6,532 bases of DNA, taken from IMG/VR virus record IMGVR_UViG_2660238548_000019, one strand, 5' to 3'. The first letter of the stretch is position 1. Each line of letters begins with the position of its first letter. The notes under the pieces are model-generated. The model made no database searches. It was not told where the DNA came from and saw only the letters and a program-made list of their open reading frames with translations. Shown piece by piece: positions 1 through 6,532 of this stretch. Origin of the DNA: a virus (Duplodnaviria > Heunggongvirae > Uroviricota > Caudoviricetes). The translations under genes were made by a program, and so were the position numbers.

Positions 1-56
1 CCGCACAGGGGGATTCACCATGCAGAAGTGTTTTTAATAAACAGCAAACAAAAAAA

Positions 57-1526: not shown

Positions 1527-2621
1527 TTAACTGACACCAGAATCATCATAACCGCGACTTGTTATAGCTTGCCTGTATGCGTTCATTTTGCGTTCTGCGT
1601 ACTGGACAACATCTTTAATGACAAGCTTATGAACAACTGAAATAAGGTCATTTATATAACAAAAGTCAGGTGACTTATTTTTCACTGGCAACCAAATAAC
1701 ATCGTTCTTAATTTTTCTATTACTAACACTATCCCCCCATGAATATTTATGTGAAATAGACCTATAAATACATGAAATAATGCCCAAATAAGCAAACTTT
1801 GTCCTTCCATCCTCATTGTTAACATAGAGTCGCAAATTATGACTGTCGTTTGAAAAAAAGTCTCGCTCCTGATAAGTTACAACGAATGTCTTACCACCAA
1901 TAAAAATACAGTTCCCTTTTTCCAAGAGTGAGTCATCATAGGCGATATAAGAACTAACAGAGTTATTATCACGGCTAGCACAAAGATAAGGAACATCCCC
2001 ACTATTTTCTATGATGTCTCTAGACAATATGTTTCCTGTATTGCACACTGAGAATAACTCAGTAACAGGAAAGCCTGAAAATTCAATATTTTTAAAATGC
2101 TCCAGGATAAGATAATCTTTTTCCGTTAGTTGGTAATCACTCAGCCCAGCAGCTATCAGGTATGCTTCCAGCTCTTCTATATGGGCCGCTTCCAGCTCTT
2201 CTATATAATTATCCATAAAAAACCAGTCAATTTCATTATTTTTCACTGGTAATGAGATGAAATATTCTCCATCTCTGAGTTTGGAACTCGATAACTGTTG
2301 ACCATAATTAAAACGCCCCTTTAAAGCTTTATTAATCATACTGGCAACATACAGTCCGCGCTTTGCATTAAAGTCGGACTTACTTGATTTTAATGTAAGA
2401 ACATGCACCTTCATTTCTACGCTGGCACAATAAGGATGATAAAAAGCATCTCCAAAAAAATTAACGCTTATAAAATTTTCATAATGCCTTGCATCATCCA
2501 TAAACTCGGTATCAAACTCTCCGATGATACCGTTTTGATCGCTCTTTGCTGAAACACGTTTGATTTTGCCTGGTTTTAATCTTCCTGAGGAGATAAGCGA
2601 GCCTGTGCTCACATAGAACAA
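1527..2621 (-). CDS. specificity subunit with two target-recognition domains (HsdS-like; comparable to BcgI B subunit)
   Basis: Track ORF starts at TTG 2621 with AGGA 8 nt upstream. The protein has an internal duplication typical of two-TRD specificity subunits: TRD starts VEWGEFRIGDLFYVSTGSLI versus IEFSGFPVTELFSVCNTGNIL, and TRD ends SKLRDGEYFISLPVKNNEIDWFF versus SNRKIKNDVIWLPVKNKSPDFCY. The first TRD-start motif lies upstream of the TTG in the same frame (open back to TGA 2705-2703) with no ATG/GTG/TTG, so the true N-terminus is unresolved. Confidence 0.6.
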   Translation of the reverse strand: MFYVSTGSLISSGRLKPGKIKRVSAKSDQNGIIGEFDTEFMDDARHYENFISVNFFGDAFYHPYCASVEMKVHVLTLKSSKSDFNAKRGLYVASMINKALKGRFNYGQQLSSSKLRDGEYFISLPVKNNEIDWFFMDNYIEELEAAHIEELEAYLIAAGLSDYQLTEKDYLILEHFKNIEFSGFPVTELFSVCNTGNILSRDIIENSGDVPYLCASRDNNSVSSYIAYDDSLLEKGNCIFIGGKTFVVTYQERDFFSNDSHNLRLYVNNEDGRTKFAYLGIISCIYRSISHKYSWGDSVSNRKIKNDVIWLPVKNKSPDFCYINDLISVVHKLVIKDVVQYAERKMNAYRQAITSRGYDDSGVS

Positions 2622-2640
2622 ATCGCCAATCCTGAACTCT

Positions 2641-2690
2641 CCCCACTCAACGCTTCTTAATTTATCGCTGAGCGGGGAATTTACTTTCCC
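2641..2690 (-). promoter_or_regulatory. candidate programmed -1 ribosomal frameshift cassette (slippery heptamer, spacer, hairpin) at the junction of the two R-M genes
   Basis: In the frame of the large gene the last codons are GCG GGA AAG TAA, giving heptamer G_GGA_AAG (minus 2690-2684, X_XXY_YYZ pattern) directly before the stop. A 6-nt spacer (TAAATT) is followed by a hairpin with 12-bp stem CCCCGCTCAGCG / CGTTGAGTGGGG (two G-U pairs, 13-nt loop; plus 2641-2677). The -1 frame after the slip reads GTA AAT TCC CCG..., which is the specificity-gene frame. Confidence 0.35.
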
Positions 2691-4642
2691 GCAAAATTGT
2701 TTTCACCTTGTTTTTTCAGTAATTGCGAGACCTCCCATGCAAGGTAATCACCTACCGTCTTTTTGAAATCCTCCAGCGTTGGCCTAGCATCTACTGGCCT
2801 GGTCTGATTCCAGTCCTCACCACTATCAGGATCGATTGTTCCCTCAAAATATTCATCCTCCGTAAAGATATTAAGGCAACCTTTCCCGAAGTGAACCAGA
2901 TCCACAACCTCCTGATAACGCTCTTTTGCACGATCGGCATCAACAAGATTGTTTCTTGCCTTTTTGCGATTAGAGCGAGCGTAGCCGTCATTGGAAAAGT
3001 CGATAAACTTAACAGCCTGTTTCGCGTTATGCGGAATTTTTACCTGAAAAACGTAAATGTACGTCTGAACGCTTGATTTACCAATAAACAGATCCGCAGG
3101 CATTTTGATGCTTGCCAGCAAGGTATTTTCCTTGAGTATTTTTTTGTTGTACTCCGTAGCCTTTCCTGTGCCAGCTGAACTCTGGATAATCACTGCAGCA
3201 TAGCCTTTATCCATCATCGACAGCGCCTTCTGCACGAAAATCATGCCGTTACCTTTAGCTGAATACGGAGGATTGAGAATAAATGCGTCCGCAGGGAATT
3301 TTTCTCCTGTTTTCCCAAATCCATACTTGCCGTCAAAATCGGCCAGCGAGTCTTTATTGAGGATATTCGAGCTACCATCCCCCATCAAAATCATATTCAG
3401 GATGGCCAGCATATAAATACTGGATAACACCTCAAGGCCAAGAAGCTGTTCAGCCTTGATTTGCGCTTCCTTAAGTTGTAGTTCGTTCGGTGAGTGAATA
3501 TTTTCTCTGGCGTCAATGAGCATTTCATTCATTGCAGCCACAAGCAATCCCGCAGAACCTGTAGCAAAATCCCACACATAGGAATCTTTGTTTACTCTGG
3601 CGAGTCGTGCCAGCAATGTGGCAACATAAGGTGGTGTCAGAACGACGTCATTGAGCTTGTCCTGCGTAAATCCAAGCCAGCGATACATCTCATTAAACAG
3701 TTTGCCCGTAAAATCGGTGGTCAGTCCAATTTTGTAATACTCCCCAAGATCATCAACAACTTTAACAAACACGCGCTTTAACTGGCTTTCACCGTTGACT
3801 GGTTTGTTAATGTTTTCAGTCCACAGCGTATTTTGCAACGAGCGCAAAATCATTTCTCTTTTTGTTTCAGGAACAGCTTTCAGCCTTAAAAAATTCCTTA
3901 TTTTCCTGAAAATAATATCACCATCACGCAAGTCCTCCTCCGTTGAAGAGGTCAGTTCTTTTTTATCCAGCGGTGCTAACTTTCCCGGAATCCCCAACGT
4001 TGCAATAACGGTAGCCACAACAAGGTAAACACGATCACTTTCACCAAGCCCCTTTTCATTCTGGTAAATATCGTTATTCAGACGGGAAAGTCGCGTGTCT
4101 ATCTCTTCCTCTTTGCTGGCCTTGATTTTTTCCAGTTCTTCGGGAGGAAGATTAAGCAGCTTTATCTTGTTGAGAAATCCATCAACATTTTTATCAGCAA
4201 GGAACGATAAGTCGGTGAATTCACCAACCTTCTGTCCGGCTCCTAAATTATTCTTTGATACGTACCACACGCCGATTTCATGATGCAGTTCGCCTGTACC
4301 ATCATCGCGCCAGCCGGTCATACCAATAGCAATAATATCAGGGTAATTGGTGAACTGAAGAAGTGCGTTGGCATAATGGACTGCGCCATTCACCGCGTAT
4401 CCATTAATATTTTTAAAATTCCATTCTTTTCTGGCATCTTTGTTCTCAATAATACCGTTGCTGCCAAGTCTGATAAGCCTGTCCTTGTAGCCTTTATACT
4501 CGATGAGAACGGGATACTGCTTGCCGTATTTGTCCTTAACAAGGAGTTTTACGTCGGGACGATTACCGCCTGCGCCGCCATTTTTCGAAAAATAAGCGTC
4601 CAGTGCGTTATCGATCTCTCCGTTAAGTGATGCATTCTGCAA
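2681..4642 (-). CDS. restriction-modification polypeptide: N-terminal PD-(D/E)xK nuclease-like region plus gamma-class N6-adenine DNA methyltransferase (Type IIB BcgI-A-like); 5' end probably extends through the heptamer repeat to ATG 4881 after a frame restoration
   Basis: Track ORF of 653 aa starting at TTG 4642. Motifs read in the translation: RPD (aa 28-30) then EYK (aa 48-50), a PD-x17-ExK spacing; VVLTPPYVATLL (motif X) then WDFATGSAG (motif I) then FILNPPYS (motif IV), the gamma-class order. Size and two-gene layout match my recollection of BcgI (A about 637 aa, B about 341 aa). The frame stays open upstream of 4642 through the whole repeat as plausible protein (...TSSKSRKSVKSVEPEITELANSWLKSYRLDYK) with no in-frame start, until a stop at 4888-4886. 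Confidence 0.6.
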   Translation of the reverse strand: MQNASLNGEIDNALDAYFSKNGGAGGNRPDVKLLVKDKYGKQYPVLIEYKGYKDRLIRLGSNGIIENKDARKEWNFKNINGYAVNGAVHYANALLQFTNYPDIIAIGMTGWRDDGTGELHHEIGVWYVSKNNLGAGQKVGEFTDLSFLADKNVDGFLNKIKLLNLPPEELEKIKASKEEEIDTRLSRLNNDIYQNEKGLGESDRVYLVVATVIATLGIPGKLAPLDKKELTSSTEEDLRDGDIIFRKIRNFLRLKAVPETKREMILRSLQNTLWTENINKPVNGESQLKRVFVKVVDDLGEYYKIGLTTDFTGKLFNEMYRWLGFTQDKLNDVVLTPPYVATLLARLARVNKDSYVWDFATGSAGLLVAAMNEMLIDARENIHSPNELQLKEAQIKAEQLLGLEVLSSIYMLAILNMILMGDGSSNILNKDSLADFDGKYGFGKTGEKFPADAFILNPPYSAKGNGMIFVQKALSMMDKGYAAVIIQSSAGTGKATEYNKKILKENTLLASIKMPADLFIGKSSVQTYIYVFQVKIPHNAKQAVKFIDFSNDGYARSNRKKARNNLVDADRAKERYQEVVDLVHFGKGCLNIFTEDEYFEGTIDPDSGEDWNQTRPVDARPTLEDFKKTVGDYLAWEVSQLLKKQGENNFAGK

Positions 4643-4732
4643 CTTGTAATCAAGCCTGTAAGATTTAAGCCATGAGTTCGCCAGTTCGGTAATTTCCGGC
4701 TCAACAGATTTTACAGACTTTCTTGATTTACT

Positions 4733-4872
4733 GCTGGTCGCTGGTCGCTGGTCGCTGGTCGCTGGTCGCTGGTCGCTGGTCGCTGGTCGCTGGTCGCTGG
4801 TCGCTGGTCGCTGGTCGCTGGTCGCTGGTCGCTGGTCGCTGGTCGCTGGTCGCTGGTCGCTGGTCGCTGGTC
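4733..4872. repeat. perfect tandem heptanucleotide repeat (GCTGGTC)x20 (140 bp); GACCAGC on the coding strand
   Basis: Counted directly: 20 uninterrupted 7-bp units from 4733 to 4872. Because 7 is not a multiple of 3, all three frames translate the same heptad (TSDQRPA) with no stop codons. Confidence 0.97.
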
Positions 4873-5055
4873 TGGCAGCATAAAATCATCCTTTTATGAA
4901 AATCAACGTTTTTTGAGCACTCGCACACAAAAAATTACCGCATTGGTTGCAACGACAACCTTCATTTTGCGGAGCATATGACAAATAAAGTACGGGTGCG
5001 TTGAGGATGCCAGACACATCAGAGGTGGCGGGAGATTACTCCCCTGCCTGGTCTC

Positions 5056-5211
5056 TTACTTCTCAGATTCGTAGTCTACGAAGACAGCGACCTCCGTCTG
5101 GCCGGTTCGGATTCGTACCTCGCAGAAGTCTTTCCTCGTTACCAGTGCTATCACTACGACGGTAATACAGATGACGATCAGGGCGATTAACATCGCCTTT
5201 TGCTGCTTCAT
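5056..5211 (-). CDS. hok: Hok/Gef-family type I toxin (51 aa)
   Basis: Not in the ORF track. ATG 5211-5209, TAA 5058-5056. Translation MKQQKAMLIALIVICITVVVIALVTRKDFCEVRIRTGQTEVAVFVDYESEK is a classic Hok/Gef/RelF-like sequence. The leader just upstream reads AGGCAAGGAGAAGTAGGCTATG, like the hok leader of plasmid R1 as I recall it. Confidence 0.85.
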   Translation of the reverse strand: MKQQKAMLIALIVICITVVVIALVTRKDFCEVRIRTGQTEVAVFVDYESEK

Positions 5212-5214
5212 AGC

Positions 5215-5268
5215 CTACTTCTCCTTGCCTTTCGGCACGTAAGAGGCTAACCTAAGTTTGTAAGTCAT
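5215..5268 (-). CDS. mok-like leader ORF (17 aa) ending 3 nt before the hok start
   Basis: ATG 5268-5266 to TAG 5217-5215, translation MTYKLRLASLRAEGKEK. Its position matches the mok/hok coupling arrangement, but it is much shorter than R1 mok. Confidence 0.35.
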   Translation of the reverse strand: MTYKLRLASYVPKGKEK

Positions 5269-5386
5269 AGATTTGGCCTCAGATTAATGTTAAGCGTCCT
5301 GCAAGACGCGTAATGTTAACTGGGGCTTTTCTCTGTCTGCCTTACGGCTGCATGCCCGAGGCAGACAGCCTCAAGCACCCGCAGCT

Positions 5387-5414
5387 ATTCTACAGTAAAA
5401 ACTCGCGCTTTCAA
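5387..5414 (-). promoter_or_regulatory. sigma70-type promoter, most likely for the hok mRNA; -35 overlaps the Q stop codon
   Basis: Minus strand: -35 TTGAAA (5414-5409), 16-nt spacer, -10 TAGAAT (5392-5387), putative start near 5380 at GGGTGCTTGAGGCTGTCTGCCTC, which resembles the 5' end of R1 hok mRNA. A 9-bp stem hairpin (5333-5368) follows. Confidence 0.45.
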
Positions 5415-5836
5415 TTTCCCGCACGTCCGGCAAACTGACTGGCCTGTGATCCTGATGGTTCACGCTCAACGTACCTGTCCATTTCCAGCTTTACTCCCTG
5501 CATGATCAACATCCCCTCAATAACACCTTCTGCTTTTTGCAGTACCCGCCCGGCCCAGCAATCAGAGCGCCCATGCTTACGGCCCAGTGACATAAGCGTC
5601 ATCCCGAACACATAATAATCATACAGAAAATCATGCAAATCGCTGTTATTGACGTTCAGTTGCGCCATGCAATTGCTGATAATCAGCGCATCGTCATCGG
5701 TACACTGAGGCCGTGATTTAACCTTTGACGGGATCAGCCCCTTAAATCCGGCGGCAATGGGCGACCAGCTCACATCCTCATGATTATTGGCCACCCATGC
5801 GCCCCAGCGTTCAAGCACCTGCTGAATATCACGCAT
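5411..5836 (-). CDS. Q: late-gene antiterminator Q (phage 82/21-type, QuuD-like)
   Basis: Track ORF 5411..5920; I start it at the internal ATG 5836-5834 ([24 protein letters not shown]...), which overlaps the ninH stop in an ATGCGTGA arrangement. The N-terminal sequence matches my recollection of DLP12 QuuD-type Q proteins. Confidence 0.8.
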
Positions 5837-6029
5837 CAGAGTCTTTCCCCTTATCCCATCCACGGTGAACCATAAGGACACCGTTGACGACGGCGTGCCG
5901 TTTGCCTTCTTTATCGCCAATATATTTTCTGACCGTGTTGCGACTACAGTTCAGTATTCTGGCTACCTCGGTCTGATTTTCATATGCCTCAACGAGCATG
6001 TCAGGAATGGTTTTTACTGTGAACGTCAT
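5829..6029 (-). CDS. ninH: NinH
   Basis: 66 aa, [42 protein letters not shown]..., close to lambda NinH as I recall it. Its start overlaps the ninG stop (ATGA). Confidence 0.8.
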
Positions 6030-6406
6030 GCGGCCTCACTTCTGCTGTTTCGCAGGTCTTTAAGTTTCTGCTGATACTTCGCCTTGATGGCCCTGCACTC
6101 TTCGACAGTCCAGCGATGGCGGTTATGGTTTGATTCGATTTCGTCTACTGCTTCCTGCCCGATGCGGCTAATCAGTTCGACGCGATACGGAACGAGATTT
6201 CCGCTTTTGTGCTGGTTGCACACCACGCATTGCTTGTGAATATTGCGTTCATCAAATCGGAGTTGAGGTGCCGCAGCAGTTGTCCGGTAATGTCCGGCAT
6301 CCCACTGAGCAGACGTGAGCGTTCCGCACGAGATACATGGTAAGTCGCGGTCTCTTTCTCTGACGAAGGCGTTTACGGCTTGTTGGGCTTGTTTAATCCA
6401 GTAACT
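6026..6406 (-). pseudogene. ninG: ninG (rap) 5'-truncated by an IS insertion; only the C-terminal part remains
   Basis: From [43 protein letters not shown]... to the end matches the C-terminal part of lambda NinG as I recall it. The first 16 residues of the track ORF ([16 protein letters not shown]) are read out of the IS end and are not NinG. Confidence 0.75.
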
Positions 6407-6532
6407 GAGGTAGCCTGAGTTTAACGGACACTCCTTCCTGAAATAGAATGGCATCAGAAGGAGCTAATAATGAGCAGAAAAACCCAACGTTACTCTAAAG
6501 AGTTCAAAGCCGAAGCTGTCAGAACGGTTCTT
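6406..6532 (+). mobile_element. left end of an IS3-family insertion sequence (continues beyond the window)
   Basis: Sequence from about 6406 (TGAGGTAGCCTGAGTTTAACGGACAC...) runs into an OrfA start with GAAGGAG RBS. The boundary is placed where NinG homology stops; the exact end is uncertain by a few bases. It may be IS600-like, but that name is from memory only. Confidence 0.6.
6470..6532 (+). CDS. IS3-family transposase OrfA, N-terminal 21 codons (partial)
   Basis: ATG 6470 preceded by AGGAG; translation MSRKTQRYSKEFKAEAVRTVL is a typical start of an IS3-family OrfA helix-turn-helix protein. Confidence 0.7.
   Translation, partial: MSRKTQRYSKEFKAEAVRTVL

Follow-up and report, generated by a model that had tools for sequence, protein, structure and literature searches.

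The DNA considered here is a 6,532-nucleotide stretch of a Caudoviricetes virus (IMG/VR record IMGVR_UViG_2660238548_000019), referred to in its whole length as the window. Directly downstream of its gene for the antiterminator Q lies what is, with high probability, a complete hok/mok/sok type I toxin–antitoxin module of the hokW/hokD subfamily of lambdoid prophages, placed at the Q-proximal end of a 3.9-kb cassette. Features are on the minus strand unless marked otherwise. The toxin gene, hok (5056-5211), encodes 51 amino acids (aa) and is preceded by the Shine-Dalgarno sequence AAGGAG at 5226-5221. Its identity is established by the Pfam family HOK_GEF (PF01848), which matches the open reading frame (ORF) with E=7.1e-22 and 77 bits, versus a cut-off of 22, over profile positions 1-42 of 42. 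The protein is identical to R1 Hok at 21/51 residues and to HokW at 47/51, so that four conservative hydrophobic substitutions are the sole differences from the toxic HokW. At the DNA level, window 4986-5393 is 91-93% identical to mokW/hokW/sokW of the Shiga toxin (Stx) phages 933W and VT2-Sakai (Sp5) and of dozens more Stx phages; the 933W record annotates the matching block as mokW, hokW and sokW. The coding sequence is missing from the window's list of ORFs because of a size cutoff only. In RefSeq and GenBank copies it is already annotated, as a 'Hok/Gef family protein' in RefSeq and as a 'host killer protein' in phage PhiR12_3, while sok and the regulatory elements are not.

The anatomy of the hok messenger was revealed by a covariance-model search. 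Here, Rfam family RF01794 spans 5206-5380, covering model positions 1-157 of 157 with 118.4 bits (gathering score 59; E=2.5e-27). This family, though named 'sok', sits on the strand of the hok mRNA, from the tac element GGGUGCUUGAGG to the hok AUG, the true Sok being complementary to an inner segment of the match. The promoter occupies 5387-5414 and consists of a -35 hexamer TTGAAA (5414-5409), a 16-nt spacer and a -10 hexamer TAGAAT (5392-5387). With 10/12 consensus matches, it is the single sigma-70-like match in 4600-5500, where shuffled sequences give 0.5 on average. The TGA stop codon of Q (5413-5411) shares its bases with the -35, which lies in sequence that is specific to loci in which Q adjoins hok, being conserved there in both clades of such loci (see below). 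Similarity to other hok loci ends just upstream of the -10, which is itself kept in 6/7 hok modules, with TACAAT in the plasmid copy (L013).

The full-length hok mRNA is predicted to span 4990-5380, starting at about G5380, where the Rfam model begins, and ending just past the fold-back inhibition (fbi) element, as hokW homology stops at 4986. The 5'-terminal tac element (5369-5380) is invariant in 7/7 aligned hok modules, and fbi, CCUCAACGCACCC (4994-5006), is conserved in all of them. In the minimum-free-energy fold of 4990-5380 (-152.5 kcal/mol, z = -5.97), tac at 5380-5369 pairs with fbi at 5006-4994 over 12 base pairs with one bulged C. Covariation between the two elements is uncountable, since both are conserved in all 7 modules. 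A 5' stem-loop at 5333-5368, seen in both the Rfam structure alignment and the fold, carries a compensatory change, G-C to A-U, between the window and 933W.

The leader also contains mok (5215-5268), an ORF of 17 codons that begins with ATG at 5268-5266, has the Shine-Dalgarno sequence GAGG at 5280-5277 and terminates with TAG at 5217-5215. The ATG is at the same position as the mokW start in 933W. The R1 and 933W versions of mok extend hok in frame by 18–19 codons at the N terminus, whereas in the window mok does not read through hok in frame for the ~70 codons found there. The TAG, 3 nt before the hok ATG (5211), arises from a CAG-to-TAG change and is present only in the window's clade (99% identical), with CAG retained at this site in all other modules examined. 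As mok stops 3 nt before the hok AUG, coupling of the truncated mok to hok would proceed by termination and re-initiation, which is plausible, rather than by read-through of an in-frame Mok-Hok. Coupling should persist because the stop is so close and the hok Shine-Dalgarno sequence (5226-5221) lies within mok. The sequence-only reading had proposed the following parts, each of which is present at its stated coordinates or a few bases away: a Hok-family toxin, which the Pfam and Rfam matches bear out; a sigma-70 promoter with its -35 over the Q stop, recovered by the consensus scan; a hok leader with a 5' hairpin resembling the translational-activation element, which agrees with the RF01794 match and the fold; and a short, coupled mok-like frame, which is present as described.

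On the plus strand, the antisense Sok RNA is predicted to occupy 5260-5330 (71 nt), with coordinates carried over from the 933W sokW annotation (window = L001 + 3485). Its predicted fold (-27.8 kcal/mol, z = -4.67) has a 5' tail of 15 nt (5260-5274) ahead of a long terminator hairpin (5275-5327), with a U run after it. Both the mok Shine-Dalgarno sequence (5280-5277) and the mok ATG are inside the Sok-complementary stretch, which is the classical Sok target. The sok promoter was located by identity to hokW, a generic scan having missed it, and lies at 5225-5253 (+) with -35 TTGCCT (5225-5230), a 17-nt spacer and -10 TAACCT (5248-5253). All 29 nt are unchanged in 933W, with the block ending 6 nt ahead of the sokW start annotated there, and in 12 further loci that were compared. 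The corresponding sokW -10 comprises the bases that were replaced in the 'pro-less' construct made with primers YO-421/422, and it is required (Takada 2021, PMC8621323). The sequence-only reading had placed an antisense RNA around 5230-5330 on the plus strand and could not locate its promoter or terminator; its region is supported and is now refined to these elements.

The segment with the Sok 5' tail and the mok start (5255-5282) is the most diverged part of the module, being 64% identical to 933W versus 94-98% in neighboring segments. With such identity in the Sok recognition region, cross-recognition between the 933W and window systems may be reduced. Judged from the sequence, this divergence is what one would predict for hok/sok copies that share a cell and avoid cross-talk.

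The transcript ends, toxicity and physiological role of the module would be those suggested by analogy with the 92%-identical HokW-sokW and with R1 hok/sok. In this model, the promoter at 5414-5387 would be constitutive and yield a hok mRNA of ~390 nt, which would be held translationally inert by the pairing of 5' tac to 3' fbi. Gradual trimming from the 3' end should then expose the mok translation-initiation region. At this point Sok, made from its own promoter in the mok/hok junction, would pair with the mok Shine-Dalgarno sequence and AUG, stopping mok translation and, with it, the coupled translation of Hok. Once the supply of the unstable Sok ceases, Hok, which by analogy is a 51-aa inner-membrane toxin, would be made and the membrane depolarized. 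In the related prophage system, HokW causes growth arrest, sokW expressed from its own promoter neutralizes HokW, and hokW-sokW makes induced Sp5 lysogens lyse earlier and release twice as much phage (Takada et al. 2021, PMC8621323). Candidate roles for the window module, by the same analogy, are to stabilize the cassette or the prophage and/or to aid lysis after induction.

The position of the module is explained by the structure of Q and of the sequence that follows it. The Q gene (5411-5836) encodes 141 aa from the MRDIQQ start and matches Pfam Phage_antitermQ with E=8.8e-48. The protein shares 70% identity with the 144-aa Q (Q933 type) of Min27, a 933W-like Stx2 phage, from which it diverges abruptly after ...DRYVERE (residue 126), with the BLAST breakpoint at 5459. 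The tail past residue 126 is encoded by cassette-derived 5458-5414, followed by the stop at 5413-5411. By BLAST, two blocks of the window are collinear with Stx phages: 5459-6410, which is ninG-ninH-Q, and 774-1534, which contains the last Q codons, the late promoter pR', the terminator tR', a methyltransferase remnant and tRNA genes. These blocks are only ~30 nt apart in Stx phages. As read from this collinearity, which defines both boundaries, 1535-5458 was inserted into a Q933-family gene at its 3' end and gave Q its last 15 codons and stop. The 15 residues replace an 18-residue Q933-type tail, LPGGRTSVFYQRKK (read from Min27 DNA), and the stretch that encodes them and the stop (5411-5458) is weakly similar to the region upstream of hokW in 933W.

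In Stx phages, pR' starts a few nt after Q, and the sequence-only reading had remarked that the hok locus sits in this usual place of the Q-dependent late promoter. This is borne out, and the reason is that hok/sok forms the Q-proximal end of the 3.9-kb insertion in the 3' end of Q. Neither pR' nor qut is found immediately 3' of the Q stop (5411); instead, an intact pR'/tR' block lies 3.9 kb downstream, and a Q933-family protein and a conserved pR'-tR' sequence are both present. The displaced pR', followed by a StxS-like RNA and tR', occupies 1234-1519, immediately past the stop codon that ends the specificity-subunit gene described below. It has TTTACA at 1519-1514, a 16-nt spacer, TATCAT at 1497-1492 and a probable start at ~1485, and belongs to the block 774-1534, whose Stx-phage counterpart, directly downstream of Q, is 92% identical. 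The conserved region after pR' runs to the terminator GCCAGCC...GGCTGGCTTTTTT, which ends near 1234. The start was placed by counting back 258 nt from the tR' 3' end, the distance at which the pR' start has been mapped (Sy et al. 2020, PMC7547250). The StxS gene sits directly downstream of the 144-aa Q type, in some non-toxigenic phages too (Sy et al. 2020, PMC7547250). No Rfam family matches the StxS-like region, even at E up to 1. The pR', StxS-like region and tR' are retained though the window carries no stx genes. Because the cassette lies upstream of pR' and inside the end of Q, it would be outside Q control and would be read by pR-derived early transcription. As the module is co-oriented with pR transcription, induction would drive antiterminated transcription through hok in the sense direction and head-on into the sok promoter.

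The cassette itself (1535-5458) begins on the Q side with hok/sok, which a spacer of 107 nt separates from a Shine-Dalgarno sequence and an ATG (4881). After these come, in order, a (GACCAGC)n tract, a restriction-modification (RM) gene of BcgI-like type and a gene for a specificity (S) subunit. The RM gene (2681-4642; 653 codons) would probably be read from ATG 4881 when in phase. Its product has an N6_Mtase domain and an N-terminal PD...EYK motif, and the PhiR12_3 record names this large gene BcgI-alpha-like. The S gene (1527-2621) contains a Methylase_S domain. Its middle (window 2206-2727) is not conserved in comparison with the related loci L007, L014, L017 and L019, cassettes that are otherwise 94-97% identical, and the annotated S proteins vary in length, being split or truncated in some genomes. 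The variable middle suggests, on sequence grounds, an exchange of target-recognition domains and hence different specificities.

The RM gene was found in 30/5426 Escherichia coli genomes, and the order hok-tract-RM-S is kept in all 30. The Q-hok junction is present in 29 of these, which form two clades, 99% and 90% identical. The thirtieth copy, L019, has an RM gene that is only 81% identical and a different prophage context, with the arrangement hok-spacer-ATG-(GACCAGC)64-RM-S, and its homology to the window begins at hok +1. Since hok is kept with the RM cassette even here, hok/sok travels with it. In L014 (E. coli 2013C-3033), the Q-hok-tract-RM-S cassette is directly upstream of stx1c, placing the cassette in a Shiga-toxin-converting prophage as well. 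A distant BLAST of 4640-4995 (spacer and tract) against phages returned PhiR12_3 only, and the 107-nt spacer has no other known relative besides the cassette copies. A literature search on the origin of PhiR12_3, which might have shown whether such an arrangement yields viable phage, found no paper. By comparison, hok modules of ~90% identity are present at 10,515 places in 4691/5426 complete E. coli genomes, usually in the nin region of lambdoid prophages.

The GACCAGC tract, with 20 copies at 4733-4872, lies between ATG 4881 and the RM gene and is read from this ATG as (DQRPATS)n. The RM frame is open upstream across the whole tract, without a start codon there, before the annotated TTG at 4642. 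In the window, the tract is out of phase and the ORF from ATG 4881 stops at 4713-4711. Across related loci, tract length ranges from 20 to ~120 units. All three exit phases are found among loci that are >99.8% identical and have 20 to 89 units, of which L021 reads straight into the RM gene. Overall, 4/14 loci are in phase, and the three L007-type loci among them have ORFs of 889-966 aa. Protein-level conservation versus L019 extends over the 24 codons that separate the tract from the annotated TTG start, with 7 synonymous and 5 non-synonymous differences. As L019 and L007 have no in-frame start after the tract, translation must begin at the ATG before it. Taken from the sequences alone, the tract looks like a simple-sequence phase-variation switch for the prophage RM gene. 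To our knowledge, simple-sequence contingency loci are uncommon in E. coli.

Three related cassettes with a 90%-identical Q allele, L007, L015 and L016, combine a hok frameshift with an in-phase tract and a variant tract end, GACCGTAAATC. The association of the frameshift with the in-phase state is not statistically assessable because these loci share ancestry. RefSeq and GenBank records also place a plus-strand ORF over the tract, termed 'hypothetical' or 'YXWGXW repeat-containing' (for example, L009 7847-8506 and L017 4512-5006), and PhiR12_3 labels its counterpart an EmrB/QacA transporter. This ORF lengthens and shortens with the tract, which makes an annotation artefact of the repeat the probable explanation.

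Several explanations of the hok locus have to be weighed. The set of elements found here is far above chance expectation. A number of observations pull against the reading as a complete module. The +1 and 3' end of the hok mRNA are placed by homology only, the sok -10 agrees with consensus at just 3/6 positions, and the generic promoter scan of 4600-5500 did not call the sok promoter. The derived mok TAG could weaken hok translation instead of preserving coupling. In addition, hok is broken in 4/14 related cassettes, by a nonsense codon in L017 and by a shared 1-nt insertion in L007, L015 and L016, and two independent inactivating mutations imply that selection on the toxin is not strict here. 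These same mutations, together with the mok frame cut short in the window's clade and the ~10,500 hok-like places in 4691 genomes, many of them likely redundant, would fit a functionally silent relic that has kept a family-typical sequence and neither kills nor regulates. Pedersen and Gerdes are said to have found, in 1999, that most chromosomal hok loci of E. coli K-12 are silent. We consider such a relic improbable, as the window keeps both promoters, tac, fbi, the mok start, the hok Shine-Dalgarno sequence and the hok ORF intact, its Hok is separated from a toxic protein by conservative changes only, and hok is intact in 10/14 cassettes, including the 81%-diverged L019. Far less credible still is a hok promoter region that serves as the Q-dependent late promoter, that is, as a replacement pR'/qut. 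Position is the one point in its favor, since the hok start is 30 nt after the Q stop, in the usual pR' place. However, the 92%-identical, 933W-type pR'-StxS-tR' block is present at 1519-1234, and the hok -10 and transcribed region are common to hok loci without an adjacent Q. Further, small-word BLAST of the Q-downstream regions of BP-4795, Min27, 434 and PhiR55_1 against 4600-5480 gave no significant similarity, only a 17-nt match in the Q coding end. With no pR'-like sequence beside hok in this comparison, hok as a replacement or double of pR' was rejected.

A further proposal is compatible with the complete-module reading and would add a role to it, namely that hok/sok is functionally coupled to the RM genes. 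Here, the hok promoter and leader would transcribe the tract/RM operon in lysogens, and the module would supply the addiction that is lost when RM is phase-OFF. The hok-tract-RM-S order common to all 30 genomes, L019 included, speaks for such coupling, yet this linkage may mean common descent only, or recombination via hok as a portable homology. Similarly, the hok promoter is the only minus-strand sigma-70-like site in 4600-5500, a generic scan of the minus strand finds no canonical terminator between hok and ATG 4881, and the canonical hairpin terminator that follows fbi in hokD-type loci is missing in the window. Against free passage into the tract stands a weak terminator-like hairpin, CCGCA...UGCGG with U6, at ~4972-4929, although it folds no better than shuffles (z = -1.19; the L019 equivalent has z = +0.59). 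The linkage may have a functional basis or none beyond recombination at the widespread hok module, and we regard functional coupling as rather unlikely. The same doubt applies to its fullest form, in which hok/sok would belong to a mobile, repeat-switched BcgI-like RM cassette as its integral 5' module and would not be a free-standing addiction module. If this were true, the hok promoter would give lysogen-state transcription into the heptamer-tract/RM operon, and the toxin–antitoxin pair would keep the cassette stable while a phase-OFF RM system cannot enforce its own retention. With the module placed between Q and pR', induction-driven, antiterminated pR transcription meeting the sok promoter head-on would then deplete Sok and release Hok, an early trigger by which lysis is accelerated.

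As a complete hok/mok/sok module, the locus is one more well-formed member of a very large family whose closest relative, hokW-sokW, is already characterized, and by itself it has little weight. What is added is an explanation for the split between Q and pR', a clade-specific mok stop variant and the link between hok/sok and an apparently phase-variable RM cassette. The prophage architecture is clarified in that Q and the late promoter are split by a 3.9-kb cassette, pR' being displaced and not replaced. The more unusual feature is the tract, with its look of a phase-variation switch for the RM gene, and the conserved linkage of hok/sok to an RM gene behind a heptamer tract of 20 to 120 copies is what most deserves attention. 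A switchable restriction system borne by a prophage would influence the traffic of phages and plasmids in pathogenic lineages, strains with stx1c beside the cassette among them.

Elsewhere in the window, three tRNA genes (825-1071), annotated as Ile, Arg and Arg in RefSeq copies, correspond to the ileZ-argN-argO set typical of Stx phages and are preceded by the remnant of a DNA methyltransferase gene. A TerB-family ORF (221-724; Pfam E=6.8e-16) is in the slot that the stx genes take in Stx phages. Window 1-52 gives a partial match to the small RNA STnc100, which is cut by the window end and remains below threshold (33.5 bits vs a gathering score of 47).

Among known systems, the closest is hokW-mokW-sokW of 933W and Sp5, to which the similarity in DNA and protein was given above. 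The 933W locus lies at 58.4 kb of a 61.7-kb genome, close to its right end, whereas that of the window is beside Q. MokW is a 70-aa, in-frame extension of HokW and the window mok stops at 17 codons, and the 933W hok -35 is a poor hexamer, TTTGCG, compared with TTGAAA at 16-nt spacing in the window. The hokD (relF)-type loci, present in most E. coli genomes, have ~90% DNA identity over the whole module. They are located upstream of DUF968/rusA genes in the nin region, whereas the window hok follows Q. In addition, their fbi is followed at once by a canonical hairpin terminator and they lack a linked RM cassette, and the window is the opposite on both counts.

The R1 (parB) system has the same order of elements as the window: tac, 5' hairpin, Sok-terminator complement, mok Shine-Dalgarno sequence and AUG, sok promoter, hok Shine-Dalgarno sequence, hok and fbi. 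Its type of sok promoter, TTGCGC-17-TATCCT, is at the same place in the mok/hok junction as TTGCCT-17-TAACCT in the window. The two differ in that R1 Hok shares just 21/51 residues and R1 mok is in frame through hok for 70 codons. R1 hok/mok/sok is also plasmid-borne and acts in post-segregational killing, whereas the window module is in a prophage. The late 'morons' of Stx phages (stx genes, tRNAs) occupy the same neighborhood as the window, with Q, pR'-StxS-tR', ileZ-argN-argO and cargo before the nanS-p esterase and holin. However, Stx-phage cargo is downstream of pR'/tR' and Q-dependent, and the window cassette is upstream of pR', inside the end of Q.

For the tract, the comparison is with neuO, in which the repeat tract lies in the 5' coding region. 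The neuO gene of prophage CUS-3 in E. coli K1 is a phage-borne, phase-variable gene associated with heptanucleotide repeats (PMC13001214). It is a precedent for the tract and not for hok, and both its repeat unit and its gene differ from GACCAGC and the BcgI-like RM gene.

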